IMG/VR virus record: IMGVR_UViG_2526164596_000007
Coordinates: 1-13,502 of that record
Strand: one strand, 5' to 3'
DNA from: a virus
Lineage: Duplodnaviria; Heunggongvirae; Uroviricota; Caudoviricetes
DNA: 13,502 nucleotides
Shown one piece after another: positions 1 through 13,502 of the stretch (within the stretch, counting starts at the first letter, position 1; each line of letters begins with the position of its first letter). The notes below the pieces were generated by a model. The model was not told the origin of the DNA, ran no database searches, and saw only the letters and a program-made list of their open reading frames with translations. The position numbers were made by a program, and so were the translations under genes.

Positions 1-577
1 AACAAGGGGAAATTTGCGCCTGGATCGCACGAATAAACGGTTCGAAGGAGCGATGCGTGATTTGTTGCTGAATAAAACTTTTATCCAGCATGACGCGGGT
101 GAAAAGACCATCAAAAACCGCTTTCATTGTGCTATTACCTGCTCCCAAATTGCCTAACACAAGGGGATACATTTGCGATAAGGATAAAAGATCGCGATTA
201 TCTTTTCCTTCATTGAGATGCGGGTAATTCTCATTAATCAACAGTTCAATAAACGGATATTTTAATAGTTCGCCTGCGTAATTATCCCTCTCTAATAATA
301 ATGTAGCCACTTGTGGCGTTAAATTAAGCCAGGCAAAGAGTTTATGTTGAATAAAAAAATGTTGGCATGATTTTAGTAATTCCAACTGCTCTGAAAATAA
401 TTGCCAATGTTGCTCCTCGGTAAGTTGCGCTATAACCCGACTCGTCGGGATACGCACCGTGCCATCTTCACTGGAGAAATGGGTAATTAACTCAACGCCG
501 ACAAGGAGTTGCTGGTTATCTCTTATCGGCAGGAAATAGCAATCAGAATGATAAAGATTCTCCAAAAAAATCTTCAT
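1..577 (-). CDS. ydiV: Anti-FlhDC factor YdiV (EAL-like), partial; 3' end lies beyond the window start
   Basis: Reverse-strand translation from the ATG at 577..575 reads MKIFLENLYHSDCYFLPIRDNQQLLVGVELIT..., matching my recollection of E. coli YdiV. The open frame runs to the window edge. Not in the ORF track because no stop codon falls inside the window. Confidence 0.8.
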   Translation of the reverse strand, partial: MKIFLENLYHSDCYFLPIRDNQQLLVGVELITHFSSEDGTVRIPTSRVIAQLTEEQHWQLFSEQLELLKSCQHFFIQHKLFAWLNLTPQVATLLLERDNYAGELLKYPFIELLINENYPHLNEGKDNRDLLSLSQMYPLVLGNLGAGNSTMKAVFDGLFTRVMLDKSFIQQQITHRSFEPFIRAIQAQISPC

Positions 578-783
578 GGTAACCGTCCCTCTCGAAGGAT
601 GTTTTTCAGTATCCGGCTAAAAGGGATGAGGCCATAAGACATAACAATTACAGAAGGAGTAACTTTCATTTGTTCCATGTTAACCACTTTTTCAGGGGTC
701 CTTTTTTTAGATTATCCTGATTATAAACGAATAATCCATTTACGGAATTTTTGTCTGCAAAATACTACTGTATTCAGGAGTAA

Positions 784-816
784 ATGGACGGCGATGTATC
801 ATCGCCGTCCATTTTT
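784..816. terminator. Perfect 13-bp inverted repeat (784-796 / 800-812, 3-nt loop) followed by T5 on the plus strand, just 3' of nlpC
   Basis: Seen in sequence: atggacggcgatg-tat-catcgccgtccat then ttttt. The A-run/T-run arrangement favours plus-strand termination, but it may act bidirectionally at the end of nlpC. Confidence 0.4.
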
Positions 817-823
817 CGACATA

Positions 824-1288
824 CTAGATTCGTCTCGCCTGCCAGAAATTTTTCTGCCAATAGACATTATCAAGTGAGGAACGCATCACTCCCTTGCTGG
901 TAGAGGCGTGGATAAATTGGTTGTTGGTATCGTAAATACCTACATGCAAACCATTTTGTCCGGACCCCGTTTTGAAAAAGACCAGGTCACCAGGCAGCAA
1001 CTCGTCTTTATCAATTTGCGTGCCGATAGAGGCTTGTTCTTTGGTTTCTCGGGGCAGCTGCAAATCGAAACGATCGCGCATCGTTACAACCACAAATCCC
1101 GAACAGTCCACACCGCGCCGCGTCATGCCACCATAACGATACGGCGTGCCATGCCAGCTTTGTAGCTGGTCGTTCAAACCGGCAATAACGGTAATCGAAT
1201 CAGAAAGTCTGGCATTTGGCGGCGGTGCTTTATGGTGGCTACACCCGGCCAGAAACAGTGCTGTGATCAAAATAAGGCAGAAACGCAT
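824..1288 (-). CDS. nlpC: NlpC/P60-family lipoprotein NlpC
   Basis: 154-aa ORF with a lipoprotein signal and lipobox (LFLAGC) and an NlpC/P60-like Cys motif (GVDCSGFV). Its position downstream of btuD matches the E. coli K-12 gene order. Confidence 0.9.
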   Translation of the reverse strand: MRFCLILITALFLAGCSHHKAPPPNARLSDSITVIAGLNDQLQSWHGTPYRYGGMTRRGVDCSGFVVVTMRDRFDLQLPRETKEQASIGTQIDKDELLPGDLVFFKTGSGQNGLHVGIYDTNNQFIHASTSKGVMRSSLDNVYWQKNFWQARRI

Positions 1289-1365
1289 TCCGTACGGTTC
1301 CTCTGTTTTTTATTCTTGCATTAATTTAGCGTCGTAATTACCCGATTTTCAAGATACTAATGAAA

Positions 1366-2115
1366 TCAGATGGTCGAAATCAGCATTCTGTGACCTTCGA
1401 TATCCAGACGGCGAAAATTCATCCCATAGGCCTGCGCCAGATTTGGCGGCGTGAGCACCTCTTCTCTGCGTCCACTGGCCAGCATTTTTCCACCTTTTAG
1501 CAACCACGCCCGATGCGCATGACGCAATGTGTGGTTGAGATCGTGACTGCTCATCACAATCGCCAGTCCTTGCTGACACAGAGCGCTCAGAATTTTGTCT
1601 AACGCACTTTGTTGCGCAACATCAAGACTGTTCATCGGCTCATCAAGAAGCAGCAATTGACCTGCGGGATTGGCTTGTGGTGTGATTTGCAGCACCACCG
1701 CAGCAAGACGTACGCGTTGCCATTCACCGCCGGAAAGTTGATTGGTGCTACGTCCGAGTTTGTCATCAAGAGCCAGCGCCCCTGCGACATCATTCAGTAG
1801 TTCGGTACGCGTTTTATCGTGCTGATGCAGTGTCAGGTAGTGCCAGACCGGCATTGCAAACGGCGGCGTCTGCTGTTGTGAAAGATAGGCGCGATGCAGC
1901 GCGAGTTTTGTTGCGGACCATGCTTCCAGGGGTTGCCCCGCGAACTGAATGCTTCCCTTACCGCTGGTCATTCCGGCCATTCGTGCAAGCAAGGTACTCT
2001 TACCCGCGCCATTCGGCCCCACCAGATGCAGGATCTCCCCAGCCCGAACCTCGCCAGAAAGTGGCCCCAGGCGGGTAGATTCCGCAACATCCTGTAACTG
2101 CATCACAATAGACAT
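1366..2115 (-). CDS. btuD: Vitamin B12 ABC transporter ATP-binding subunit BtuD
   Basis: 249 aa with Walker A (GPNGAGKST), ABC signature (LSGGEWQR) and Walker B (LLLLDEP). Sits in the expected btuCED context. Confidence 0.95.
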
Positions 2116-2666
2116 TATTTTGCCAACGCCAGTTTAATGCTTTCCATCACAATGGGGTCTTCCGGCGTCATATCCGGGGAAAAACGCTGGATGACCAATC
2201 CGTCCCTGCCAACTAAAAATTTCTCAAAATTCCATAAAATATCATCAGGGTACAGCGGTGCACGACCTTTGCTGACCATACGGGCATAGAATCCGCTCTC
2301 TTCCGGCGCGACTGCGGTCGGCGCTGCGGCAATCAATTTTTGATACAGCGGATGGCGTCCTTCGCCATTAACTTCAATCTTACTGAACATCGGGAACGTC
2401 ACCCCCCATGTGGTGGTACAGTAAGTTTTAATCTCTTCATCGCTGCCCGGTTCTTGTTCCAGAAACTGGTTGCACGGGAATCCCAGCACCACAAAACCTC
2501 GATCGGCCCAGGCTTTCTGAATATTCTCCAACTGCTCATATTGCGGCGTTAAGCCACACTTTGAGGCGACATTGACAATCAACAGCACATTACCGGCGTA
2601 CTTCTCCAGCGTGGTCACTTCACCGTCGATATCTTTCACTACGGTCGTCAGAATGGAATCTTGCAT
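2115..2666 (-). CDS. btuE: Glutathione peroxidase-family protein BtuE
   Basis: 183 aa with a GPx-like active-site region ([23 protein letters not shown]). Its stop shares base 2115 with the btuD start. Confidence 0.95.
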
Positions 2667-2728
2667 CGTTTCTCCTGGGTGTGGTCAGTAAAAATCTTAG
2701 CTTTTAATCATAGACCGTCTTTTTGCGG

Positions 2729-3709
2729 CTAACGTCCTGCTTTTAACAATAACCAGATAAACACCGGCGCACCCAACGTTGCGGTGACCACGCCAATAGG
2801 CAGCTCTGCGGCAGCTAATGCCAAGCGCGCTACAACATCGGCCAGCAGCAATGCGCTCGCCCCTGCCAGCGCGCAGCCGGGAAGTAATACGCGATGATCG
2901 GTTAAACCACACAACCGAAGAATATGTGGGATCACCAGACCAATAAAGCCGATAGCACCCGCCAGCGCCACACTGACGCCAACCATCCAGCCGGTCGCTG
3001 CCACCAGCACATTGCGCCAGAACCACAGGGGTAAACCCAGTTGCCGCGCCGAGATCTCGCCAAGTGCTAACATATTCATCGGCCTGGACTGACAACAGAT
3101 CCACAACAACACGGGGATCAATGCCAGCATCAGCCAGCTTTGCCGCCAGTCTACGCCGCCAAAACCGCCCATCATCCAGTACATCAGCTGACGTAAATCA
3201 ACAGAGGTGGAAAAGTAGATAGCCCACGTCATTAGTGCGCTACAGATAATCCCTAATGCAACGCCAGCCAGCAATAACCGACTGGTCGAAAGATGACGAC
3301 GGGCGAAACGTAAGAGTATTAAAGTGATGATAAGCGCGCCAGCAATCGCACACAGCCCTAGTGCCCAGTTTGGGAGTTGCCCTTGCCCAAGCAATACCGC
3401 GGCGATAAGCCCTACGCCTGCGCCGTTAGAGACGCCAAGTAGTCCAGGTTCTGCCAGAGGATTTTCAAACAACGCCTGCATTACTGCGCCGGATATAGCC
3501 AGCGCCGCACCAACCAGCAATACAGCCAGCGTACGTGGCAGGCGAATCTGCCAGACGAACAGTTCGCCACGAGGAGAAAACCAGTCACCTGGCGAGATCC
3601 ATTGTTCACCGGCGCAAAGGCTTAAGAGAAGCGCCAGCAGCATCAAAACTGACAGGCATAATAACCAGCGAATATTTTGTCGCTGTTGTTGGCGGGCAAG
3701 TGTCAGCAT
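2729..3709 (-). CDS. btuC: Vitamin B12 ABC transporter permease BtuC
   Basis: 326-aa, highly hydrophobic polytopic membrane protein of the FecCD/BtuC permease type. First gene of the btuCED cluster. Confidence 0.95.
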
Positions 3710-3766
3710 GGTATCCGTTCTGCTGAAGTGTCATGGCGTTGATTTTACGGTGACTCTTCGACAGTG

Positions 3767-3792
3767 AAAAGAAAAAAGGCCGCAGAGCGGCC
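3767..3792 (-). terminator. Rho-independent terminator for leftward (minus-strand) transcription
   Basis: Seen in sequence: GC stem ggccgc-aga-gcggcc (3778-3792) that on the minus strand is followed by a T-rich run (plus-strand A-run 3767-3777). It lies 69 bp upstream of the btuC start, at the junction with the phage-like DNA. Confidence 0.6.
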
Positions 3793-3807
3793 ATAAACAC
3801 AAACAAA

Positions 3808-3820
3808 AATCAATAAGTTA
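3808..3820 (+). promoter_or_regulatory. Candidate IHF-binding site in the putative attL region
   Basis: aatcaataagtta matches the IHF consensus WATCAANNNNTTR exactly and is preceded by an A-tract (3801-3809). It lies between the junction and the integrase-proximal direct repeats. Confidence 0.3.
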
Positions 3821-3881
3821 TATAATTATCAAAGGCTTACAGACACACAAAAACACAGCCAACCACAACAAATAACAGGGA

Positions 3882-3901
3882 TGTGGTCACTTTGTGGATC
3901 A
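3882..3901 (+). repeat. Direct repeats TGTGGTCA / TGTGGATCA spaced 11 bp apart; candidate integrase arm-type binding sites
   Basis: Seen in sequence at 3882-3889 and 3893-3901. They resemble the P2 Int arm-site consensus as I recall it (TGTGGACA direct repeats); that consensus is from memory. Confidence 0.3.
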
Positions 3902-4294
3902 TTCGCTCCCCTCTTTTTCCTTATTTCGTTGAACGCCAATTGCGACACACGTACTAAGCAAATCTTTACATTTCTCTACGTCTTCAGACTTACGCAATTT
4001 GATGCTTTTTACAGACTGCGGGCTACTGTCCGTAGCACGATACATCGTTATTTCAATATCATTTCGGTCTAAGAGTCCCATAATGGCTTTTGCAACCTCC
4101 ACACCCTTCTTCGCGAAATCAAAGAACAGAGCAAGTTTATATGGATTTTCGACGGAAAAAACTTCAATTTTGCTAAAACCAACATCGTGTCGAGAAAAAT
4201 ATTGCTCAACCTCATCTCGAAGTTCTGGATCGCAGACAATGTCTATTCTCCAGTACTGACCTAAATGCAAATCGCTATTAACTGTTTTTTCCAC
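3899..4294 (-). CDS. Hypothetical protein (131 aa from GTG at 4294; 138 aa if the TTG at 4315 is used), translationally coupled downstream of int
   Basis: A strong SD (AAGGAGG, 4306..4300 on the minus strand) overlaps the int stop codon, with an in-frame GTG 5 nt downstream. The ORF is AT-rich relative to the integrase and I recognise no family. Confidence 0.55.
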   Translation of the reverse strand: MEKTVNSDLHLGQYWRIDIVCDPELRDEVEQYFSRHDVGFSKIEVFSVENPYKLALFFDFAKKGVEVAKAIMGLLDRNDIEITMYRATDSSPQSVKSIKLRKSEDVEKCKDLLSTCVAIGVQRNKEKEGSE

Positions 4295-4304
4295 AACATC
4301 CTCC

Positions 4305-5279
4305 TTACCCAGCAATAGGATTAAATCTCACCGCATCCTGCAAGTAATCCGGCGCAAGATGGGCATAAATCATCGTTGTCTGAATCTTTGCGTGCCCCAG
4401 AATTTTCTGGAGCGTCAGAATATTGCCGCCGTTCATCATGAAATGACTGGCGAAGGTGTGGCGCAGCGCATGAACAGCCTGGCCGTCAGGAACATCAGGT
4501 GCGACCGTTTTGATGACATCGCGAACCAATGGATAATCCAGCGTCGGAAACACCAGTTTCCCGCCCCGTTTTTTGATCTTTTCAAACAGGCTTTCAGAAA
4601 TAGGAACGGTACGGTTTTTGCTGTTCTTCGTTTTTGAAAAAGTGATTCGACAATGAAGAACACGGCGCTGCTCCAGTACCGCTACCTCGCCCCATCGCGC
4701 CCCGGTCGACAGAAGGATTTCGACAGCCAGCCGTTCATCGGGATTTTCAGCCAGTGCATCCAGCAACTGAACACATTCAGACTTACTCAGATATCCCATT
4801 TCGCGCTCGTTAACCTTCATTCCTTTAAGGCCTTGAACGGGGTTATCGTTAAGAAAATGGCCGGATGAGATGAGTGCGGTAAACATCGCGCTTAACGCCC
4901 CAATCTCTCGATTTATGGTGCTGGGCTGTATCCCCTGCTCTATCCTGGACACACGTAGCTCGGTGAGCATCGTTGTATTAAGTTTATGCACGCACGGGTC
5001 ATCCATTGCCTCACTCAAGCGCAGCAATTTAAGGCGCGTGTTATGCCCTGACTTCATTAGCTGGCCGTGGTATTTCCACCACAAGTCAATAAGCACTGAC
5101 AGCGGACGGCGATCAATGGAGTTTCCTTTCCACTCATTGTTATGCTGTTGCGCCAGCACCCACCGCTCATATAAAACTGCATCCGATTTCGTTTTAAATT
5201 TTTTACGAATGCGTTTGCCTTTACGCCCCTCCGGGCGCATGTCAAGAAGATACCCTCCCGGAATTGATTTTATGCTCAT
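4305..5279 (-). CDS. int: P2-type tyrosine integrase
   Basis: 324 aa with tyrosine-recombinase box II (HALRHTFASH) and the catalytic Tyr region (TTMIYAHL). Strong end-to-end resemblance to P2 Int (337 aa) as recalled. Confidence 0.9.
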   Translation of the reverse strand: MSIKSIPGGYLLDMRPEGRKGKRIRKKFKTKSDAVLYERWVLAQQHNNEWKGNSIDRRPLSVLIDLWWKYHGQLMKSGHNTRLKLLRLSEAMDDPCVHKLNTTMLTELRVSRIEQGIQPSTINREIGALSAMFTALISSGHFLNDNPVQGLKGMKVNEREMGYLSKSECVQLLDALAENPDERLAVEILLSTGARWGEVAVLEQRRVLHCRITFSKTKNSKNRTVPISESLFEKIKKRGGKLVFPTLDYPLVRDVIKTVAPDVPDGQAVHALRHTFASHFMMNGGNILTLQKILGHAKIQTTMIYAHLAPDYLQDAVRFNPIAG

Positions 5280-5328
5280 TCGTGAAACCCCAGCGTTACA
5301 AGACCACCATGCCCCCAGCGCTCCATGA

Positions 5329-5637
5329 TTAGCCGGGCTGTGTGCCAGTCTTGCGGGGTTTTTGAGAAGGCGATGTGCTTTTTAGCCCATCAGGGGAGAG
5401 AGACGGACTGATCTGCCCAGCAGCCTCATTTGTTTTTCCCGTCATAAGCCAATTCATGTACTTAAAAAAGCGAGGGTGATTAACAATCTTGATAAGCACT
5501 TCGCCACCTATGTTTTCAATCCGCCCCGTTTCATAACGACGCAAAGTGCCGATAGGCACATCAATCAGGCCGCAAAATTCTTCGCGCGTTAAATCCTCTG
5601 ATTCACGAATCACTCTAATTTTTTCACCGATAAGCAT
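5329..5637 (-). CDS. P2 C-like immunity repressor (HTH)
   Basis: 102 aa (P2 C is 99 aa as recalled), with an HTH-like N-terminus (LTREEFCGLIDVPIGTLRRYETG). It sits upstream of int on the same strand and is divergent from the cox-like gene across a palindromic operator region. Confidence 0.7.
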   Translation of the reverse strand: MLIGEKIRVIRESEDLTREEFCGLIDVPIGTLRRYETGRIENIGGEVLIKIVNHPRFFKYMNWLMTGKTNEAAGQISPSLSPDGLKSTSPSQKPRKTGTQPG

Positions 5638-5649
5638 TGACAGTGTTCC

Positions 5650-5695
5650 TATAAGTACACTAAGCTTGCGCGCAAGGTGTACTTATAAGTACACC
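5650..5695. promoter_or_regulatory. Lysis/lysogeny switch operator: three half-sites of tataagtacac (direct, inverted, direct), including a perfect 20-bp palindrome
   Basis: Seen in sequence: tataagtacac at 5650-5660, its reverse complement at 5677-5687, and a third copy at 5685-5695. The stretch 5676-5695 (ggtgtacttataagtacacc) is a perfect palindrome and cttgcgcgcaag (5664-5675) is a second one. A TTGACA -35-like hexamer at 5637-5642 lies just upstream. Confidence 0.6.
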
Positions 5696-5733
5696 AAGTC
5701 ACAAACAACCACAGATAGCGCAGGTTATCACAC

Positions 5734-6012
5734 ATGGCAAAAGTCCTGAACACACACGAACAGGCAGACTTTGAGCGTTTAGCAGCGTTCTATCCCTACC
5801 GCGATGAGCATGGGTTACCAGTACTTGAAGAAAGCCTGAAAGATTACGCAAAGCGTACCAACCAAGCTGTTAACACAGTGAAAAGACAGGCTGACAGAGG
5901 TTCAATTCCCATCAACCAGGATGAAAAGAACTCAAGACGCACAGTAAATCTCTTCGCTCTTTTCCTGAAAACAATCAGGAGCGCAGAAAAATACGTGCAG
6001 ATGACAAAATAA
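5734..6012 (+). CDS. Cox/Apl-like small DNA-binding protein (putative excisionase and switch regulator)
   Basis: 92 aa (P2 Cox is 91 aa as recalled). It is the first gene of the rightward operon, divergent from the repressor, and has an HTH-like segment (YAKRTNQAVNTVKRQADRGSIP). Confidence 0.5.
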   Translation: MAKVLNTHEQADFERLAAFYPYRDEHGLPVLEESLKDYAKRTNQAVNTVKRQADRGSIPINQDEKNSRRTVNLFALFLKTIRSAEKYVQMTK

Positions 6013-6026
6013 CGAGGTGTCATTTT

Positions 6027-6365
6027 ATGCTGAAGCAACGCCGTAATTTTCGTACCGGAACAGAACGCCACGCTAACCGTTTCACTACCAGTGCATCACG
6101 CAGCAACATCCGCTACAGCCTGAGTGATACACACGCAACGCCGGATGGCTACCCAGTAAAACAAATCGGCGAGCACGCCTGGCTGATTGAGAAAGCTGGA
6201 ATCGTGATCCACAAATGCCCACGCAATCCGTTTACCGGAAACCGCATTTTTGCATTGAGCTGTGGCGACAATCAGTTCGGGCAGGATTTCACATTATACG
6301 AAGCACTTCGCACGGTTGATCGTCTGCTTCGCGGACAAAGTTTTATTAAACAGGTTGATTTATAA
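6027..6365 (+). CDS. Hypothetical early-region protein (112 aa)
   Basis: SD GAGGTG precedes the ATG; the ORF is packed tightly behind the cox-like gene in the same orientation. Confidence 0.55.
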   Translation: MLKQRRNFRTGTERHANRFTTSASRSNIRYSLSDTHATPDGYPVKQIGEHAWLIEKAGIVIHKCPRNPFTGNRIFALSCGDNQFGQDFTLYEALRTVDRLLRGQSFIKQVDL

Positions 6366-6375
6366 CAGGTGCTTT

Positions 6376-6663
6376 ATGACCAAAGAGTATGCACAAGGTG
6401 TATTTATCCGTTTTATTGATTTTCGCGGTGAACTGTTATTACGTGCATCCGCTATTGACGGAGTGACTCCGGCGGGTAAAAACGGAGCCGACGAAGCCAC
6501 TTACGTTTATCTGAACGGCACGCGACTACTTGTGGAGCTTCCGTACCAGACCGTTCGCGAAGCCATTAACGAAGCTGAAAAAGCGCGCCAGGCTAATAGC
6601 GATGAACCCTATATCGAAATTATTTGTATGGATTCAGAAGCTGAAATTAAGAAAGCAGATTAA
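6376..6663 (+). CDS. Hypothetical early-region protein (95 aa)
   Basis: SD AGGTG at 6366-6370 sits 5 nt before the ATG at 6376. The longer track ORF starting at 6262 overlaps the previous gene and is less likely. Confidence 0.55.
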   Translation: MTKEYAQGVFIRFIDFRGELLLRASAIDGVTPAGKNGADEATYVYLNGTRLLVELPYQTVREAINEAEKARQANSDEPYIEIICMDSEAEIKKAD

Positions 6664-6674
6664 AGGGCGTTGTG

Positions 6675-6917
6675 ATGGGCAAAGAATATAAAACTCTCAT
6701 TAACAAAGCACTTGAGCGTTTTTATTTTCGCTTAAGCGCATCAGGCGCTCATGCTGAACGTGCAGCCCGTGACTCATTGACCAGGGCAATCCGGAGTTTG
6801 TATGACGTCGCTTTTTACGCTGATGATCTGGATGCACTTAACGAACTTTCCGAGCTGATCTGTGCCGCAGAATGCGGGGAACATATTGAACCGTATAAGC
6901 TGGGGAATATCGCATGA
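6675..6917 (+). CDS. Hypothetical early-region protein (80 aa)
   Basis: SD AAGGG at 6663-6667; start is the ATG at 6675 (a GTG at 6672 is also possible). Confidence 0.5.
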   Translation: MGKEYKTLINKALERFYFRLSASGAHAERAARDSLTRAIRSLYDVAFYADDLDALNELSELICAAECGEHIEPYKLGNIA

Positions 6918-7027
6918 GTATATTTATCTCATGGCTTGTTCTGATTATTTCGGTGGCCTGCGCCATTGGGATTATGCGAATTATTCATTCAGTAAAAAAG
7001 ATTGAACGCTTTTTCACTGACGAATAA
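6914..7027 (+). CDS. Small predicted membrane peptide (37 aa, one hydrophobic helix)
   Basis: Translation MSIFISWLVLIISVACAIGIMRIIHSVKKIERFFTDE. Its ATG overlaps the upstream stop (ATGA). Below the ORF-track size cutoff; AT-rich. Confidence 0.4.
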   Translation: MSIFISWLVLIISVACAIGIMRIIHSVKKIERFFTDE

Positions 7028-7116
7028 CAGCACAAACAAAACACCAGATTAAATAAGAAAACGTGAAAACAATCCGCATTCGCGGAGGCATCCACATATA
7101 TAAACACGAGGTTAGC

Positions 7117-7380
7117 ATGCTCAGGACAAATCAAAAAATACTGAAGGATGCGTATTTTGATAGGGGGCAGGATCTCGCAAAGCTTTGTGCCGCGCTAGAA
7201 GAGATACATCAGTATTTCGCTGATATTGAAGATGATATAGCTAACAAAGGTACCAGTATTTCATCAGCGAACAGAGCACATTTTATGGGCTTTAATATTT
7301 TTACAGCAATAAGAACATTAAAAGAACAAAAAGAAGAAATAGAAAAGCTCAAACACGGACATAAAGCTAAGAGAGTGTAA
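7117..7380 (+). CDS. Hypothetical protein (87 aa), AT-rich
   Basis: SD GAGGT at 7107-7111 sits 5 nt before the ATG at 7117 (the track ORF starts at a GTG at 7063). Visibly AT-rich and lysine/glutamate-rich. Confidence 0.5.
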   Translation: MLRTNQKILKDAYFDRGQDLAKLCAALEEIHQYFADIEDDIANKGTSISSANRAHFMGFNIFTAIRTLKEQKEEIEKLKHGHKAKRV

Positions 7381-7583
7381 TGGCAATTAAGCATTTTCCC
7401 GTCGTTCGTTTCACCTCCAGAGGGCGCGAATACGAGGTCGACGAACGCCTGATTACCACTATCGACAAACATCGTTCGGAAAAGGATGCACACCACATCT
7501 ACCTCACTGACGGCACTTACTTCTGCGCCACTAATGTGGCGCGGGTAAACCTTATCCGACAGGTACAGGAGCCACGCAGATGA
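7380..7583 (+). CDS. Hypothetical protein (67 aa)
   Basis: Start overlaps the upstream stop (TAATG), indicating translational coupling. Confidence 0.5.
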   Translation: MAIKHFPVVRFTSRGREYEVDERLITTIDKHRSEKDAHHIYLTDGTYFCATNVARVNLIRQVQEPRR

Positions 7584-7846
7584 CCATTCTGGACTACATC
7601 GCTACTCATCCGGGGTGTAGCGGCGGAGAGATCGCCGCAGCACTGAATACCCCAACCACAGCCATTAATGCTGAGTTACGCCGACTTTGGCGCGGCGGCT
7701 TAGTCATCAGAACAAACCGCAGCACAGGTGGTCGCGCTCGCAAAACAGGAGGCCAGGCTTCTTACCACGTAAACCCGATGCCGTTCGGGTGTAGCAATCC
7801 ACTTACTCACATGTTTAACCAGCTACTGAAGGAAGCCAGAGCATGA
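7580..7846 (+). CDS. Hypothetical protein (88 aa), possible winged-helix DNA-binding protein
   Basis: ATGA overlap with the upstream gene. The segment ILDYIATHPGCSGGEIAAALNTPTTAINAELRRLWRGGLV resembles a wHTH domain; this is a by-eye judgement. Confidence 0.5.
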   Translation: MTILDYIATHPGCSGGEIAAALNTPTTAINAELRRLWRGGLVIRTNRSTGGRARKTGGQASYHVNPMPFGCSNPLTHMFNQLLKEARA

Positions 7847-8142
7847 GCACCATCAACCACCAGAAGCTACGCGAACTGGCATTTGCCCTGCAACGAATGG
7901 CAACGCCTCAAAAATTACTGGCATTTCGCGCAATGCTCTCGCCGTCTGCTGTGCTGGCACTGCTGGATGAGCTGGAGCACGCCAGAACCACGGCTCCTGC
8001 CATTCGCCTGACGCTCCATCATGAAATCGCTGATTTCTGCGCGACGTTGGAGTCGCCGGGCGAACCGGAAACGCCGGAAGCAATACAGCAAGAGCTGCTG
8101 CAACGCATTGACAAGGTTTTTGATTTTTTTCTGAACCAGTAA
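7843..8142 (+). CDS. Hypothetical protein (99 aa)
   Basis: ATGA overlap with the upstream gene; last gene before the non-coding island. Confidence 0.55.
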   Translation: MSTINHQKLRELAFALQRMATPQKLLAFRAMLSPSAVLALLDELEHARTTAPAIRLTLHHEIADFCATLESPGEPETPEAIQQELLQRIDKVFDFFLNQ

Positions 8143-8464
8143 GAAACCAGAACATGCACACACAAAAAAACCGCTTGCCATGCCGCAATCAGTCAGGTTA
8201 CATTTCCACTGCACCTCATAAAACGGGTGCCGGGTTTCGCAGCCTGCTGACTACACAAGCGCACAACCGCGCCAGCGGTTTTTTTGTGCGTACTGTATTG
8301 CCACGTTTTTTTCGCGTCAGAATTATGGCGGGGCGTACGGGGCCGACTTCGGTCGGGCCGGGTTCTTGTGTAGCCGGTACTGCGAACCTCGTACGTCTCG
8401 CCACCCACAGTTTCGCAGCTCTGGATGGTGAGTTTTCACAACTTACTACACAAGGGGCCACACC
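8143..8464 (+). other. GC-rich, hairpin-rich non-coding island (candidate structured RNA or regulatory element)
   Basis: No plausible ORF. Contains a 15-bp inverted repeat (8161-8175 / 8274-8288) flanking about 100 bp, a C(UUCG)G tetraloop hairpin at 8343-8356, and a short hairpin plus T7 run at 8267-8285. Confidence 0.35.
8267..8285 (+). terminator. Putative weak intrinsic terminator (ccgc-gcca-gcgg followed by T7)
   Basis: Seen in sequence. The stem is short (4-6 bp), so the call is tentative. Confidence 0.35.
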
Positions 8465-8695
8465 ATGGCAAACCGCAAACAGCACCGCGCTATCGCGGAG
8501 CGTCGTCACATCCAGACTGAAATCAACCGCAGACTTTTCCGCGCATCACGCGTCGCGCAAATCATGCACATCAATATGCTGCATGAGCGCAGCCACGCAC
8601 TATCAAACATCTATTCCGCCGCTGTTTTCAGCTATCTGGCGGATGATCTGCACGAGCTTCAACAGCTCATCCAGCAGCAAAACAAACTCCATTAA
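8465..8695 (+). CDS. Hypothetical protein (76 aa)
   Basis: SD AGGGG at 8452-8456 precedes the ATG; charged, helical-looking sequence with no cysteines, so not Ogr-like. Confidence 0.5.
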   Translation: MANRKQHRAIAERRHIQTEINRRLFRASRVAQIMHINMLHERSHALSNIYSAAVFSYLADDLHELQQLIQQQNKLH

Positions 8696-8767
8696 TTCCT
8701 GTTCCGGGCCCTTCCTGCACCTTGCGGCGGGAGGCCTTCGCACATCTGTAACCAGAGGATTGCCGCA

Positions 8768-9133
8768 ATGATTCTCGCCAACGACTTTCTTGAATACCTG
8801 CTCAACACAGAGCGTGATCTTGCCGTTCGCGTGCGTGAACGTTATGACATGTACCTGAAATCCCTGCCTGTACCGCAGCTCGCTGACGGAAAGATTGTTA
8901 TTGATGGTCGCTACATGATTGACAGCCACGAGGGAAATTACAGGCTTTACCGCATTGAAGGTGGCACCCCGTCCGTTATTGGCATTTACCAGCGCCCATC
9001 CTCTGCAATCGTCGATGTGATTGCCGACAGCATCCGCATCACACATCGCCATGCCGACACAGAAGACACCGTGCTGGAAATTCAGCGGCTGGCTACAGTC
9101 TGCCGCGACACCCTGAATGGCATGACGAAGTAA
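8768..9133 (+). CDS. Hypothetical protein (121 aa)
   Basis: SD GAGGA at 8753-8757; ends 7 bp before the replicase start. Confidence 0.55.
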   Translation: MILANDFLEYLLNTERDLAVRVRERYDMYLKSLPVPQLADGKIVIDGRYMIDSHEGNYRLYRIEGGTPSVIGIYQRPSSAIVDVIADSIRITHRHADTEDTVLEIQRLATVCRDTLNGMTK

Positions 9134-9139
9134 ATCACT

Positions 9140-12013
9140 ATGACGGCAGAGTACATCAGGGACTGGCAACAACCGCGCCACGCAGTGGGGCGTGAAGGAA
9201 CGGGGATCCCCGCTCCTGAATCCGCGCTTTCCTCCTGGCTGGATGCCTACCGGGTAGAGAACGAGCGCCGCCAGGAAATGGCTGATGCGGCGTTCTCCGC
9301 AACGCCGCTGGGCAACCTGATTAATAAAAGCCTGGACGCACAGGAAAAACAGGACAAAACCATCACACTGGCAGGAGACGCCAGAAAACAGGCACGCGGC
9401 GCGGTGGATGAAGCCATGGCCTCGCTGCGCCTGCTGCCGTCCTATCTGCGCGATCCGCTTATTCGCCACCTCTCCTTCCTGCGCAAAAAACAGGAAGCCG
9501 ATCGCCGGAAAGGCAAAAAGAGCTGGCAGGCGGAACGCTATGCACGCGGAACCCTGCGCAAAATATTCGAACGTCTGGATCGCACTGACAGACACTGGCT
9601 GACACCGGGTTACCGCTCCCTTGCTGGACGCGAACGCCTGGACGATTTGCTTTACCTGCCGCAGCTCAACAAACACCAGATACAGACGCTGGCCACCATG
9701 ACAGCGGCGATGTTCAGCAGCACCTTCGAAAAACTCTGCGATGGCTTTGGCGCGACCGATGGCGAACTGACCATGGATGTAACGCTGAAGGCGTATCAGA
9801 TGCTGGCCCGCATGGCGTTACACCTGCACATCATGCCTCCACATTATGACGCACTGACAACAGATAAAGACCGGAGGAACGAACCGGACACGGAGCTGCT
9901 GCCGGGCGCAATCCTTCGCCTGACCTGTGCGGAATGGTGGAAACGCAAACTGTGGCTGTTACGTTGCGAGTGGAGAGAAGAACAACTCCGCGCCGCCTGT
10001 CTGGTTTCCAGAAAAACATCACCCTATCTGAGCCAGGACGCGTTAAGCGAGTTTCGCGCACAGCGCGAGAAAACACGCGATTTCCTGAAAAGTTTCATGC
10101 TGGAAAACGAAGACGGGTTCACGATTGATCTCGAGACAGTGTATTACGCGGGAGTAAGTAACCCGGTTCACCGTAAGGCAGAAATGATGGCCACCATGAA
10201 GGGGCTGGAACTTCTGGCCGAAGCCCGTGGCGACAAAGCGGTGTTTCTGACTGTCACCTGCCCGTCAAAATACCACGCCACAACAGAGAACGGTCATCCG
10301 AATCCCAAATGGAACGGGGCCACCATGCGCGACTCCAGCGATTACCTGGTTAACACGTTTTTTGCGGCGGTCCGCAAAAAACTGAACCGCGACGGCCTGC
10401 GCTGGTATGGCATCCGCACGGTGGAGCCTCACCATGACGGCACCGTGCACTGGCACATGATGGTCTTTGCTCATCCGGAAGAAATCGACAGCATCGTGGC
10501 CATCACCCGCGATATTGCCATTCAGGAAGACCGCCACGAGCTGGGCAATGATATTACTCCGCGCTTTAAGGCGGAGTATGTCGACGGCTCAAAAGGCACA
10601 CCAACCAGCTACATCGCCACCTACATCGGAAAGAACCTGGACAGCCGCGCCGTGGATGGCATCGACCCGAAAACGGGCAAGCCACGCGTTGACCACGAAA
10701 CCGGAAAATCAATGGCCGAGAGTGTGGAACGCGCCATCGGCTGGGCGCGCCTTCACCGGGTCCGCCAGTTCCAGTTCTTTGGCATCCCCTCCCGTCAGGT
10801 ATGGCGTGAACTCCGCCGCCTTGCCAGCCAGATGGCACGCAACCCGGAAGGCCCACAACGGCTGAAGGATGATGCAATGGATGCGGTACTCGCTGCCGCT
10901 GATGCCGGGTGTTTTGCCACCTACATTGAGAAACAGGGCGGCGTACTTGTTCCACGCAAAGACTACCTGATTCGCACCGCCTACGACCTCGCAGATGAGC
11001 TGAACGATTACGGCGAACAGAGCGTACAGATTTACGGGATCTGGTCACCACTCATCGGGGAATCCTCCCGTGTGTGCACGCACCCGGATAACTGGAAGCT
11101 GGTAAGACGTAAACCGGAAGCGGAAGACAGCACCCGCGAAAATGGTTTTGACCTTCAGGGCGGCCCTGCCGCCCCTTGGACTCGTGGCAATAACTGTCCC
11201 CGTGTACAGGAAACGGACAACAACGGGACAGAACAGCCGGAAGAACGGCCAGCACCGTGGCCGCAGCTCCCTGACGGCGTTGAAGTGAACGAATGGATGC
11301 GCTCACTGAAACGGCACGAACGCCGGGCGCTGATGCGTTCGCTTCGTGACAAACAGGCAAAAAACAGCAGTGATGAAATGCAGAGCTGGACACAGAGCCG
11401 CAAACAGCAGCGGCCTTTGCCTGATAACCACGAATTACTCGCTAAAGAATGGCGGGAGTCTGCTGAAGCTCTCGGCCTGCATATCGGTGAACAGCAGATG
11501 CAGCACCTGTTACGGGGCGGCAGTCTGTACGTTGACGGCAGCATCATTGCACCGCAGGGATTTGAAATTGTACGCAAACCGGATACCCGACCGGACAGCC
11601 GGATCACGCAGCTCTGGCAGCGCCTGAGCCGTAACCACGGCGTAAGCAGCACGGAGATCCGCCATAACCCGGTCGCCAGCTATCTGGCACAGCTGGGGGC
11701 ATCAGACCACGAAGCCGCCGCACGCCTGGCATCCACACTTCAGCAGGACCAGAACACCATGAAAACACCCGTTACCGTGCTTTCTGACATGCTGCGCGCC
11801 ATCCGCGACGCAGAGCACGCACAGAGAATCAGTGAAACCACTGAACGCGCCCGCCGCAAAGCAGATCTGCTGCGGGGTAGCCTGACCAGTGGAAACAAAA
11901 AACAGACAGAAACGGGATTCACAAATCCCGTAAATGAGCAAAAACGCGCCGCGATATATGAAGCGCGCACAAAACAGGCAAAAACGGGATTTCAGAATCC
12001 CGTAAACGATTAA
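9140..12013 (+). CDS. HUH rolling-circle replication initiator, P2 gpA family, with an extended C-terminus
   Basis: 957 aa. HUH motif HWH at residues 437-439 (VHWHMMVF) and a paired-tyrosine motif YIATYIGK (Y491/Y495) analogous to phiX174 gpA / P2 A. Positioned as the last early gene, as in P2. Confidence 0.85.
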   Translation: MTAEYIRDWQQPRHAVGREGTGIPAPESALSSWLDAYRVENERRQEMADAAFSATPLGNLINKSLDAQEKQDKTITLAGDARKQARGAVDEAMASLRLLPSYLRDPLIRHLSFLRKKQEADRRKGKKSWQAERYARGTLRKIFERLDRTDRHWLTPGYRSLAGRERLDDLLYLPQLNKHQIQTLATMTAAMFSSTFEKLCDGFGATDGELTMDVTLKAYQMLARMALHLHIMPPHYDALTTDKDRRNEPDTELLPGAILRLTCAEWWKRKLWLLRCEWREEQLRAACLVSRKTSPYLSQDALSEFRAQREKTRDFLKSFMLENEDGFTIDLETVYYAGVSNPVHRKAEMMATMKGLELLAEARGDKAVFLTVTCPSKYHATTENGHPNPKWNGATMRDSSDYLVNTFFAAVRKKLNRDGLRWYGIRTVEPHHDGTVHWHMMVFAHPEEIDSIVAITRDIAIQEDRHELGNDITPRFKAEYVDGSKGTPTSYIATYIGKNLDSRAVDGIDPKTGKPRVDHETGKSMAESVERAIGWARLHRVRQFQFFGIPSRQVWRELRRLASQMARNPEGPQRLKDDAMDAVLAAADAGCFATYIEKQGGVLVPRKDYLIRTAYDLADELNDYGEQSVQIYGIWSPLIGESSRVCTHPDNWKLVRRKPEAEDSTRENGFDLQGGPAAPWTRGNNCPRVQETDNNGTEQPEERPAPWPQLPDGVEVNEWMRSLKRHERRALMRSLRDKQAKNSSDEMQSWTQSRKQQRPLPDNHELLAKEWRESAEALGLHIGEQQMQHLLRGGSLYVDGSIIAPQGFEIVRKPDTRPDSRITQLWQRLSRNHGVSSTEIRHNPVASYLAQLGASDHEAAARLASTLQQDQNTMKTPVTVLSDMLRAIRDAEHAQRISETTERARRKADLLRGSLTSGNKKQTETGFTNPVNEQKRAAIYEARTKQAKTGFQNPVND
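11912..12003. repeat. Two copies of the palindrome acgggatt-N4-aatcccgt, 72 bp apart, inside the 3' end of the replicase ORF and just upstream of parM; candidate parC-like centromere and ParR operator
   Basis: Seen in sequence at 11912-11931 and 11984-12003. A possible parM promoter (TTCAGA at 11990-11995, ATTAAT at 12013-12018) overlaps the second copy. Confidence 0.45.
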
Positions 12014-12037
12014 TTAATCAACATAAGGAAAAGCGAC

Positions 12038-12998
12038 ATGAAAATTTGTATCGATGACGGCTCCACCAACATCAAGCTGGCATGGACTGAGAACGGCGAA
12101 CGCCGCAACGCCATCAGCCCGAACAGCTTCAAGTCGGAATGGTCTGCGCCGTTCGGTGACACGCAGCCCGCGAACTACATGCTTGATGGCGTGCGCTATG
12201 GTTTTGATCCGGTCAGCGATCGCTTTGTCCAGACGACCGACACGCAATACCAGTACAGCGATGTGAATGTCATTGCCATTCATCACGCGCTGGTCAAATC
12301 AGGCATCACACCACAGGAAGTGGATGTGGTTGTCACCCTGCCACTGAGCGAATATTTCGACACAAACGCACAGCCGGACATGGCCAACATCAACCGCAAA
12401 AAAGCAAACGTCGTGCGCCCGGTGGCGTACCAGAACGGAAAAAGCATTCACTATCCGTAACGTACGGGTTATGCCTGAATCCATTCCGGCTGGCTTTAAG
12501 GCACTGGCTGACATGAGTCCGTTTGAATCCCTGCTGATTGTGGATTTAGGCGGAACCACGCTGGATGTGGCAAAGGTTCAGGGACAACTGGCAGGTATCA
12601 GCCAGGTGTTTTGCGATCCACACGTAGGCGTTTCCCTGATGGCCGATGCCGTACTGTCGGTGATGGCCACTAACGGTATGCGTACCAGTCACCACATCGC
12701 CAATACCATTATCGAACATCGCCATGATGAAGCCTGGCTGCGCCAGCACATCCACAATGACGCGCATTACGCCAGCCTGATGGCGGTTATTCGTGAAAAG
12801 GAAGAAACACTGAAACAACGCGTGATCCGCGCGCTGGCGGGTTTTTCGGGTTACGGGCGGGTGATGGTTGTCGGTGGCGGGGCGGAGATTGTGGCACCCG
12901 CTATCCGCGAAGCCTGCGGAGTTAATGCGACTTTCATCGCGGACGGGGTGCCACAGTTTGCTCTGGTTAATGGGCTGTACGCAATGGACAAGGAGTAA
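12038..12998 (+). pseudogene. parM: ParM/StbA-type actin-like segregation ATPase, interrupted by a +1 frameshift in an A5 run
   Basis: N-terminus MKICIDDGSTNIKLAW matches R1 ParM (MLVFIDDGSTNIKLQW) as recalled. Phosphate-2 (LLIVDLGGTTLD) and adenosine (VMVVGGGAEI) motifs are present. The frame shifts from the 12038 frame to the 12471 frame at aaaaa (12439-12443); removing one A restores a continuous ORF of about 319 aa. Confidence 0.8.
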
Positions 12999-13002
12999 AC
13001 CA

Positions 13003-13314
13003 ATGACGACACCAACCAGACGGATAAGTTTCTATCTGAAGCCCGCCGCCGTCAAGAACGAAGGCGAAGCATGCGCCTGGCTGGACAGCCTTACACCAGA
13101 AGCCCGCAAAAGTGGTCAACGTGTGGCTTTTCTGGCCGGGCTGGCACTACTGAAAATGAATCCGGCAGAGGCTTACCGACTGGCTGCATGGGCTGATTAT
13201 GAGGCGTTATCAGTGACACAAACCAGGACAGAACGCCCCGCGTCACAGCCAGTATCAGCCGCACAGATAACCAGTCAGATGGCCGGAAATATCCGGGCGT
13301 TATTTCCCGAATAA
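13003..13314 (+). CDS. parR: ParR-like centromere-binding protein (103 aa)
   Basis: SD AGGAG at 12991-12995 sits 7 nt before the ATG. The N-terminal segment (RRISFYLKP...LDSL...AFLAGLAL) and C-terminal IRALFPE resemble R1 ParR as recalled. Lies immediately downstream of parM, as in parMRC loci. Confidence 0.65.
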   Translation: MTTPTRRISFYLKPAAVKNEGEACAWLDSLTPEARKSGQRVAFLAGLALLKMNPAEAYRLAAWADYEALSVTQTRTERPASQPVSAAQITSQMAGNIRALFPE

Positions 13315-13377
13315 CACAACATCAGGGCGCATCCGCCCGGATGACTTTAACCCGGGAGCATAAACAAGGGGGACACA

Positions 13378-13502
13378 ATGCAACACATTGACAGAGAAAA
13401 AGCGCAGCGACTGATTGAGCGGATGGAAGCGCTGGCGAAAGAAGAAAATGTCAACATCCAAAAAATAGCTGAATGTGGCCAGATAGTTCTTCGTCGTGAA
13501 AA
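13378..13502 (+). CDS. Hypothetical protein, 5' portion only (runs off the window end)
   Basis: SD-like aaggggga upstream of the ATG at 13378; the frame stays open to the window end (MQHIDREKAQRLIERMEALAKEENVNIQKIAECGQIVLRRE...). Confidence 0.4.
   Translation, partial: MQHIDREKAQRLIERMEALAKEENVNIQKIAECGQIVLRRE

Follow-up and report, generated by a model that had tools for sequence, protein, structure and literature searches.

The 13,502-nucleotide stretch of viral DNA considered here (the window; positions 1 to 13,502 of IMG/VR record IMGVR_UViG_2526164596_000007) holds bacterial genes on its left and phage genes on its right, and the segment between btuC and the integrase side (3710-3901) raises the question of where the chromosome ends and which recombination signals mark the transition. 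A sequence-only reading had proposed a prophage-chromosome junction next to btuC with candidate attL signals, leaving the core itself unplaced. The comparisons described below make it very probable that this segment is the attL (B-O-P') of a P2-like (Peduoviridae) prophage, placed by a P2-type tyrosine integrase into the intrinsic-terminator hairpin between ihfA and btuC. The assignment as attL follows from the int-side arm, which is the arm present at this junction.

Host boundary, empty site and att core

The host portion and the core comprise the following features:

824-1288, minus strand: nlpC (open reading frame and Pfam)
1366-2115, minus strand: btuD (open reading frame and Pfam)
2115-2666, minus strand: btuE (open reading frame and Pfam)
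2729-3709, minus strand: btuC, vitamin B12 ABC transporter permease (326-aa open reading frame; Pfam FecCD, 1e-86; annotated btuC in all matching genomes)
3710-3767, no strand: host spacer upstream of btuC, identical to prophage-free strains in the K-12 comparison
3768-3792, no strand: att core AAAGAAAAAAGGCCGCAGAGCGGCC, 25 bp, from the attL/attR/attB comparison in STEC1590, JNEC-KY180, CB9615, SE11, O111 and O157

The left part of the window is matched by all 5426 complete E. coli genomes, a match that in ~95% of cases extends no further than 3792 (position 493 of the query, which covered window positions 3300-4400). Base-by-base comparison with K-12 assigns the DNA up to 3792 to the host and that from 3793 to the phage: K-12 reads GAAAAGAAAAAAGGCCGCAGAGCGGCC up to the point of divergence and TTTTTAGTTAGATCAGA-TTA (the ihfA stop) beyond it, while the window reads GGCCGCAGAGCGGCC followed by ATAAACACAAAC. 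In K-12, ihfA is reached 17 nt past this point, so that the hairpin ending there lies 17 nt past the ihfA stop codon; the position given for ihfA, immediately upstream of btuC, is thus accurate, the whole spacer measuring 100 bp. The shift in composition suspected at about 3793 is also evident. Between 3710 and 3792 the DNA contains 25% A, 20% C, 30% G and 24% T; between 3793 and 3881, A rises to 55% and G falls to 9%, with 21% C and 15% T. A consensus scan predicts a promoter-like site within the spacer upstream of btuC (TTTTCA-17-TAAAAT, 3770 to 3742, minus strand).

An empty site, i.e. an uninterrupted btuC-ihfA spacer detected with a 141-bp K-12 probe, is present in 5118 of the 5426 complete E. 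coli genomes. The core together with a P' arm of the window type occurs in 306, with one chromosomal copy each, and the P arm with the core in 299. These numbers indicate that nearly all interruptions of the btuC-ihfA site are of the same att type. The carriers include E2348/69, O104:H4, O111, O26, O145, O55:H7 and SE11.

The core that had been missing was found by aligning the window to the prophage-free btuC-ihfA region and by locating the other prophage end: the similarity to the empty site ends at 3792, and the core is the 25-bp sequence 3768-3792, repeated beside ihfA. It exists as a single copy in K-12 and as an exact direct repeat at both prophage ends in six related lysogens (STEC1590, JNEC-KY180, O55:H7 CB9615, SE11, O111:H- 11128 and O157:H7 Z885), where it flanks a prophage of ~36 kb. 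The window represents one prophage end, and the duplication is read from these six relatives rather than from the source genome. Their far ends show an intact ihfA, then CTAACTAAAAA-GGCCGCTCTGCGGCC-TTTTTTCTTTCAATAAC, then phage DNA (hok, ogr). In the orientation of the window, attR reads phage-TTG AAAGAAAAAAGGCCGCAGAGCGGCC TTTTTAG-ihfA and attL reads btuC-GTGA AAAGAAAAAAGGCCGCAGAGCGGCC ATAAAC-phage. The presence of one core in empty sites and two in lysogens indicates that strand exchange occurs inside the hairpin and its A-run. The A3 run of attR (TGAAAG) is of phage type and the A4 run of attL (TGAAAAG) of host type, which confines the exchange to the region right of ~3770 and left of 3793. 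For the source strain, the ihfA flank is expected to read TGTGGAC-N4-GTGGAAC, ~20 bp, AATCAATNNGTTA, TTG AAAGAAAAAAGGCCGCAGAGCGGCC TTTTTAGTTAG and the ihfA stop.

At sequence level, the core coincides with the predicted intrinsic terminator of ihfA, consisting of hairpin and T-run. A terminator scan places the stem-loop at 3778-3792 and the T-run at 3768-3777 on the minus strand; the hairpin has six GC pairs and a 3-nt loop followed by TTTTTTCTTT on that strand, with a folding energy of ~-11.6 kcal/mol (z = -2.2). The attB site accordingly shows the predicted pattern of an intrinsic terminator, a GC-rich hairpin and a T-run downstream of the ihfA stop codon. The GC-hairpin terminator noted before the junction is therefore present and is itself the crossover region. 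The insertion downstream of the ihfA stop codon, with ihfA intact at the other end in related lysogens, explains why no ihfA remnant is found to the right of the terminator, as had been observed; truncation of ihfA by the prophage is rejected, since all lysogens that were inspected have the complete gene at the other end. No gene is disrupted, and hairpin and T-run are retained at both junctions on the minus strand and, at attR, also on the other strand. The transcripts of ihfA, btuC, the phage int and ogr/hok would thus stay insulated from each other. In related prophages, a hok/gef-family toxin gene lies between ogr and the P arm and is transcribed toward ihfA (locus L003, 11040-11180; locus L005, 37072-37212, attR side), so that the duplicated hairpin at attR would be the sole barrier to antisense transcription into ihfA. 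A regulatory link between the prophage and the supply of IHF is conceivable, the target being the terminator of ihfA itself, and finds no support here.

Three variants of this junction were observed. The attR of STEC1590 (L003, 10775-10790) has a host-like GACAGTG directly left of the core in place of the usual phage GTTATTG. As a result, the resemblance to attB grows to ~32 bp and the P arm loses its IHF consensus, while the phage-type A3 run is kept; this variant may derive from an earlier form of attP or from gene conversion. Salmonella enterica strain s1 (L009, ~6070-6230, reverse strand) carries a 98%-identical integrase at the same kind of junction; its hairpin loop is TAA rather than AGA, and both P'-arm IHF consensus matches are retained with different N bases. 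The overlap region is predicted to measure 6-8 bp and to be centred on the loop, GC-AGA-GC (3782-3788); were the loop indeed part of it, co-variation of phage and host would have been required in this case. Contig NZ_JBQPOM010000071.1 (L008), labelled Vagococcus sp. WN89Y, a Firmicute, contains the enterobacterial core and P' arm followed by a 98%-identical integrase, with a flank across the core that is unlike E. coli; it is probably a contamination or a mislabelled assembly.

Arm-type sites, IHF consensus matches and the A/C-rich tract

To the right of the core, the phage arm contains the following elements:

3808-3820, plus strand: IHF consensus match H'1, AATCAATAAGTTA, an exact match to WATCAANNNNTTR, ~15-16 bp past the core
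3827-3839, plus strand: IHF consensus match H'2, TATCAAAGGCTTA, about halfway from the centre of the core to the arm-type sites
3843-3878, plus strand: A/C-rich tract with ACA(C/G/A) at an exact 10-bp period, at the position of the Cox boxes in P2 attP
3882-3900, plus strand: predicted P' arm-type sites for the integrase, the direct repeats TGTGGTCA (3882-3889) and TGTGGATC (3893-3900) at a period of 11 bp

The arrangement TGTGG-N6-TGTGG at 3882-3897 is the only one of its kind in the window, where 0.03 are expected. Eight attL variants were aligned, representing five ordinary E. coli lineages, an 80%-identical E. coli copy, the Salmonella enterica copy and the Vagococcus-labelled enterobacterial contig. 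Across them the P' arm-type sites are invariant, a single spacer base varying among 18 columns, and similarity between lineages ends directly past TGTGGATC, where differing cargo genes start. The P arm, with two arm-type sites and then an IHF consensus abutting the core, would be found beyond the window, where the prophage meets ihfA; its arm-type sites in relatives are TGTGGAC and (C/A)GTGGAAC. All four sites of the two arms have the same orientation and fit tgTGGaCa, the consensus of P2-type arm sites (PMC3448106). The distance from the core to the P' sites is 90 bp, compared to 87 bp in P2, and that from the P sites to the core is ~35 bp in both. The TGTGG repeats reported one helical turn apart are thus where they had been placed and have an 11-bp period, but they do not directly precede int, because a 131-aa open reading frame (3899-4294) intervenes.

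An attP was reconstructed by joining the left side of the CB9615 attR to the right side of attL. Its P side consists of TGTGGAC/CGTGGAAC (11-bp period), ~20 bp, AATCAATTAGTTA and the core, where AATCAATTAGTTA matches the IHF consensus exactly and is separated from the core by 3 bp. On the P' side, the core is followed by 15 bp, AATCAATAAGTTA, TATCAAAGACTTA, the A/C tract and TGTGGTCA/TGTGGATC.

The exact IHF consensus noted at 3808-3820 is indeed present and is one of two matches to WATCAANNNNTTR in the 13.5-kb window, for which 0.57 would be expected; both are in the P' arm, 19 bp apart, and cannot be occupied simultaneously. H'1 mirrors the IHF match of the P arm at ~28 bp from the hairpin centre. 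Within the eight attL variants, the specified positions of H'1 are invariant and changes are limited to N positions, while in H'2 all 4 N positions vary and 7 of the 8 variants preserve the specified ones. Of the IHF-specified columns, 1/18 is variable, in comparison to 33/71 of the other columns between core and arm sites (one-sided Fisher p = 8e-4) and 6/8 N columns; this comparison draws on a small set of related sequences and owes the majority of its substitutions to two divergent copies. Five attR variants show the same conservation pattern for the IHF match of the P arm, with STEC1590 as the exception. Exact consensus matches on both arms and their pattern of conservation are therefore consistent with IHF sites of a P2-type attL.

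The A/C-rich tract that had also been pointed out is a candidate binding region for the Cox-like excision factor of the phage, an assignment that is tentative and based on the pattern of the letters. The four-fold ACA pattern with its 10-bp period (span 3845-3878) is unique in the window and is reached by none of 200 shuffles, although the pattern was chosen post hoc. The equally post hoc CACAR-N5-CACAR is found only at 3854-3868 and at 5700-5714, just upstream of cox, a position that corresponds to where P2 Cox represses Pc. The enrichment of k-mers common to the P' arm and the C-cox spacer is marginal (p ~0.03-0.06), with higher 8-mer counts for other stretches of the prophage; one common 8-mer, CAACCACA, is at the same time an arm-like TGTGGTTG read on the opposite strand. 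Since the Cox-like protein is only marginally similar to P2 Cox, the P2 cox boxes do not apply to this tract. As a hypothesis, its phasing is consistent with the cox boxes of P2, which are helically phased (PMC3936717). The C-cox spacer itself contains, at 5643-5697, the direct repeats CTATAAGTACAC and CTTATAAGTACAC on either side of the GC-rich palindrome AAGCTTGCGCGCAAGG; by analogy with O1/O2 of P2, these repeats look like an operator pair for the C-like repressor.

Sequence conservation and the annotated attP of P2 together suggest how these elements could cooperate. The comparisons show that the prophage was inserted by strand exchange inside 3768-3792, presumably catalysed by the P2-type Int. 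As a heterobivalent protein, Int would bind the two TGTGG repeats at 3882-3900 with its N-terminal domain, while its core-binding and catalytic domains would act on the inverted repeat GGCCGC/GCGGCC. IHF would bend each arm, on the P' side at 3808-3839, and thereby bring the arm-bound Int to the core. For excision, the Cox-like protein would load on the 10-bp-periodic A/C tract in attL, beside the arm sites.

The integration module, its cargo and the rival readings

The phage genes of the window are:

3899-4294, minus strand: cargo open reading frame, 131 aa, between int and the P' arm sites; phrog_14142 (unknown function)
4305-5279, minus strand: P2-type tyrosine integrase, 324 aa (Pfam Int_N, 1.6e-28; Phage_integrase, 1.8e-19)
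5329-5637, minus strand: C-like HTH immunity repressor (Pfam HTH_3/HTH_31; phrog_147)
5734-6012, plus strand: Cox-like excisionase/repressor, 92 aa (phrog_575 'Cox-like excisionase and repressor', 1.1e-7; weak similarity to P2 Cox)
further early region: a DUF4761 protein and several small open reading frames, with the GpA replication endonuclease at 9140-12013

The integrase shares 46% identity with P2 Int over its full length, with the RWGE, HALRH, GH and Y motifs aligned, and the spacing of Y10, D13 and R15 matches that of the discriminator residues described for P2-type integrases (PMC3448106). The genes int, C, cox and gpA are arranged in P2 order, all as full-length open reading frames, and relatives of the element are complete prophages of ~36 kb with full sets of P2 morphogenesis genes. 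The Cox-like protein (5734-6012) is presumed to be the directionality factor acting on attL. Among GTDB species representatives there are two integrase copies with 98% identity (Salmonella and the Vagococcus-labelled contig), the remainder having at most 51% and being as distant as P2; the footprinting consequently relies on E. coli variants plus these two copies. An isolated phage with a close integrase was not found: the best protein match in INPHARED has 56% identity, and at DNA level there is a weak Klebsiella match. Likewise, a search for a free or excised attP, defined by the phage-type TGAAAG, hairpin and ATRA pattern, gave 0 matches in IMG/VR or metagenome contigs.

The 131-aa cargo product has no Pfam or PADLOC match, its homologues are restricted to E. 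coli and Salmonella, and its AlphaFold model (pLDDT 71) has no fold match in PDB and BFVD searches. Other lineages carry different cargo between int and the P' arm (L006, L008, L009 and L088-L090). The swapped segments are at 2012-2687 in L006, 1920-3060 in L088, from 435 in L089, from 451 in L090 and at 4981-6052 in L009. Among otherwise near-identical prophages, the cargo consists of the 131-aa orphan, a DUF1640 protein or pairs of hypothetical proteins, with the boundary directly after TGTGGATC. In P2-like prophages, the int-att interval is a minor hotspot for accessory genes (PMC13586616), and the swapping at 3899-4294 fits this hotspot, the gene found here differing in that it encodes no recognisable defence domain.

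The IHF matches allow two readings of the P' arm. Tentatively, this integrase lineage may use an attP layout unlike that of P2, with IHF on both arms (one site abutting the core on P, two alternative sites on P') and a phased Cox tract. It is rather unlikely that the P' arm instead works exactly as in P2, with 3793-3881 devoted purely to Cox binding, IHF on the P arm only and consensus matches that are incidental to A/T-rich DNA. The latter would agree with the annotated attP of P2, in which the IHF site is limited to the int-distal arm and the Cox sites to the int-proximal one, with the nearly equal core-to-arm spacing (90 versus 87 bp), with the local A+T content of 70%, at which WATCAANNNNTTR matches become more likely, and with the steric overlap of H'1 and H'2. 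It accounts less well for the fact that the only two IHF consensus matches of the window both fall within a 90-bp arm, and that the differences among eight variants, including the 80%-identical and the Salmonella copies, affect N positions and spare the specified ones.

Whichever layout the arm has, the reading of the junction as attL has to be weighed against two further explanations. The prophage of the source strain could be a fixed, non-excising remnant, with att signals that are mere relics. The limited part of the element that can be seen (9.7 kb), the degraded copy riddled with IS elements that strain P15-25 has at this site, and the lack of an attP form in IMG/VR and metagenome contigs and of an isolated phage of this integrase lineage in INPHARED are compatible with this idea; it is nevertheless improbable, given full-length int, C, cox and gpA, close relatives that are complete ~36-kb prophages with all P2 structural genes, and an undamaged core and arm sites, which other lineages have in identical form. 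The second explanation, in which the DNA beyond 3792 would be an unrelated island or a variable intergenic region of the host and the phage boundary would lie elsewhere, is already refuted. Beyond the absence of attR from the window, nothing speaks for it, while 5118 genomes join 3792 straight to the 3' flank of ihfA, their spacers departing from the window at precisely 3793; the limits of the element coincide with the 25-bp repeat, and homology extends from the core through TGTGGATC in lineages with different cargo. The same 5118 genomes, together with the P2-like int region to the right, bear out the proposed prophage-chromosome junction beside btuC.

Prior records and comparison with known systems

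Both the btuC-ihfA integration site, a common one for prophages in E. coli, and the 25-nt duplication have been described before. For prophage PP_SE11-4 of E. coli SE11, Table 2 of Oshima et al. (2008, PMC2608844) lists a P2-like element 'between btuC and ihfA' with a 25-nt duplication. PP_SE11-4 is thus P2-like and occupies the same site with the same length of duplication, and the SE11 attR shows the same core and P arm; it differs in belonging to another strain and in some arm sequence variation, and the publication gives the site without a dissection of the arm, IHF and Cox sites. The integrase family, the consensus of the arm sites and the general plan of attP are shared with P2-type phages. 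The sequence-only reading is completed by the identification of the core, the location of the other end in related lysogens and the quantification of the empty site. With site, integrase family and arm/core/IHF logic all established, the finding opens no new question, and the IHF consensus sites on both arms, as read from sequence, are its sole mildly unusual aspect.

Its practical value is that the exact boundary is fixed for a prophage present in ~5.6% (roughly one in eighteen) of complete E. coli genomes, a frequency reached by an integrase lineage that nevertheless has no isolated phage in the collections searched. Since btuC lies immediately beside phage DNA, automated prophage callers could include it in the phage. 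A 2026 survey of P2-like viruses classed the BtuC permease as a phage 'auxiliary metabolic gene' (PMC13100340); this call may be an artefact of over-wide prophage boundaries, with btuC ~60 bp from a very common P2-like attL. The att/Int pair could also be of use for single-copy integration, as the site, a bidirectional terminator, is conserved and harmless and is available in 5118 of 5426 genomes.

The annotated attP of P2 (AF063097) has the order P-arm Int sites, single IHF site, core, Cox region (74 bp) and P'-arm Int sites overlapping the 3' end of int. The element described here shares the succession of arm sites, ~35 bp with an IHF site, core, ~90 bp, arm sites and int, with a P arm that mirrors that of P2; it also shares the integrase family, the TGTGGACA-like arm repeats 11 bp apart in one orientation and the hairpin-like core. 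The two differ in attB, which is locI in P2 and the ihfA terminator here, and their core sequences are unrelated. Furthermore, the int-side arm of the window additionally contains IHF consensus matches, its A/C tract occupies the position of the Cox boxes of P2, and a cargo gene separates int from the P' arm sites, which in P2 lie inside the 3' end of int. The sequence-only reading had expected an integrase arm, an IHF site and a core, and arm-type repeats, IHF consensus matches and a core are present; because annotated P2 has Cox on the P' arm and IHF on the other arm, the arrangement is not literally that of P2.

The P arm of lambda attP offers an analogy in layout only. Its order is core - H2 - X2/F - X1 - P2, which combines a core-adjacent IHF bend, helically phased sites for the excision factor and an arm-type Int site on the same arm. 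The sequences are unrelated, and lambda Int and Xis belong to families distinct from P2 Int and Cox. If the attP layout of this lineage does depart from that of P2, excision at attL would depend on an interplay of IHF and Cox that is nearer to the P arm of lambda than to P2.
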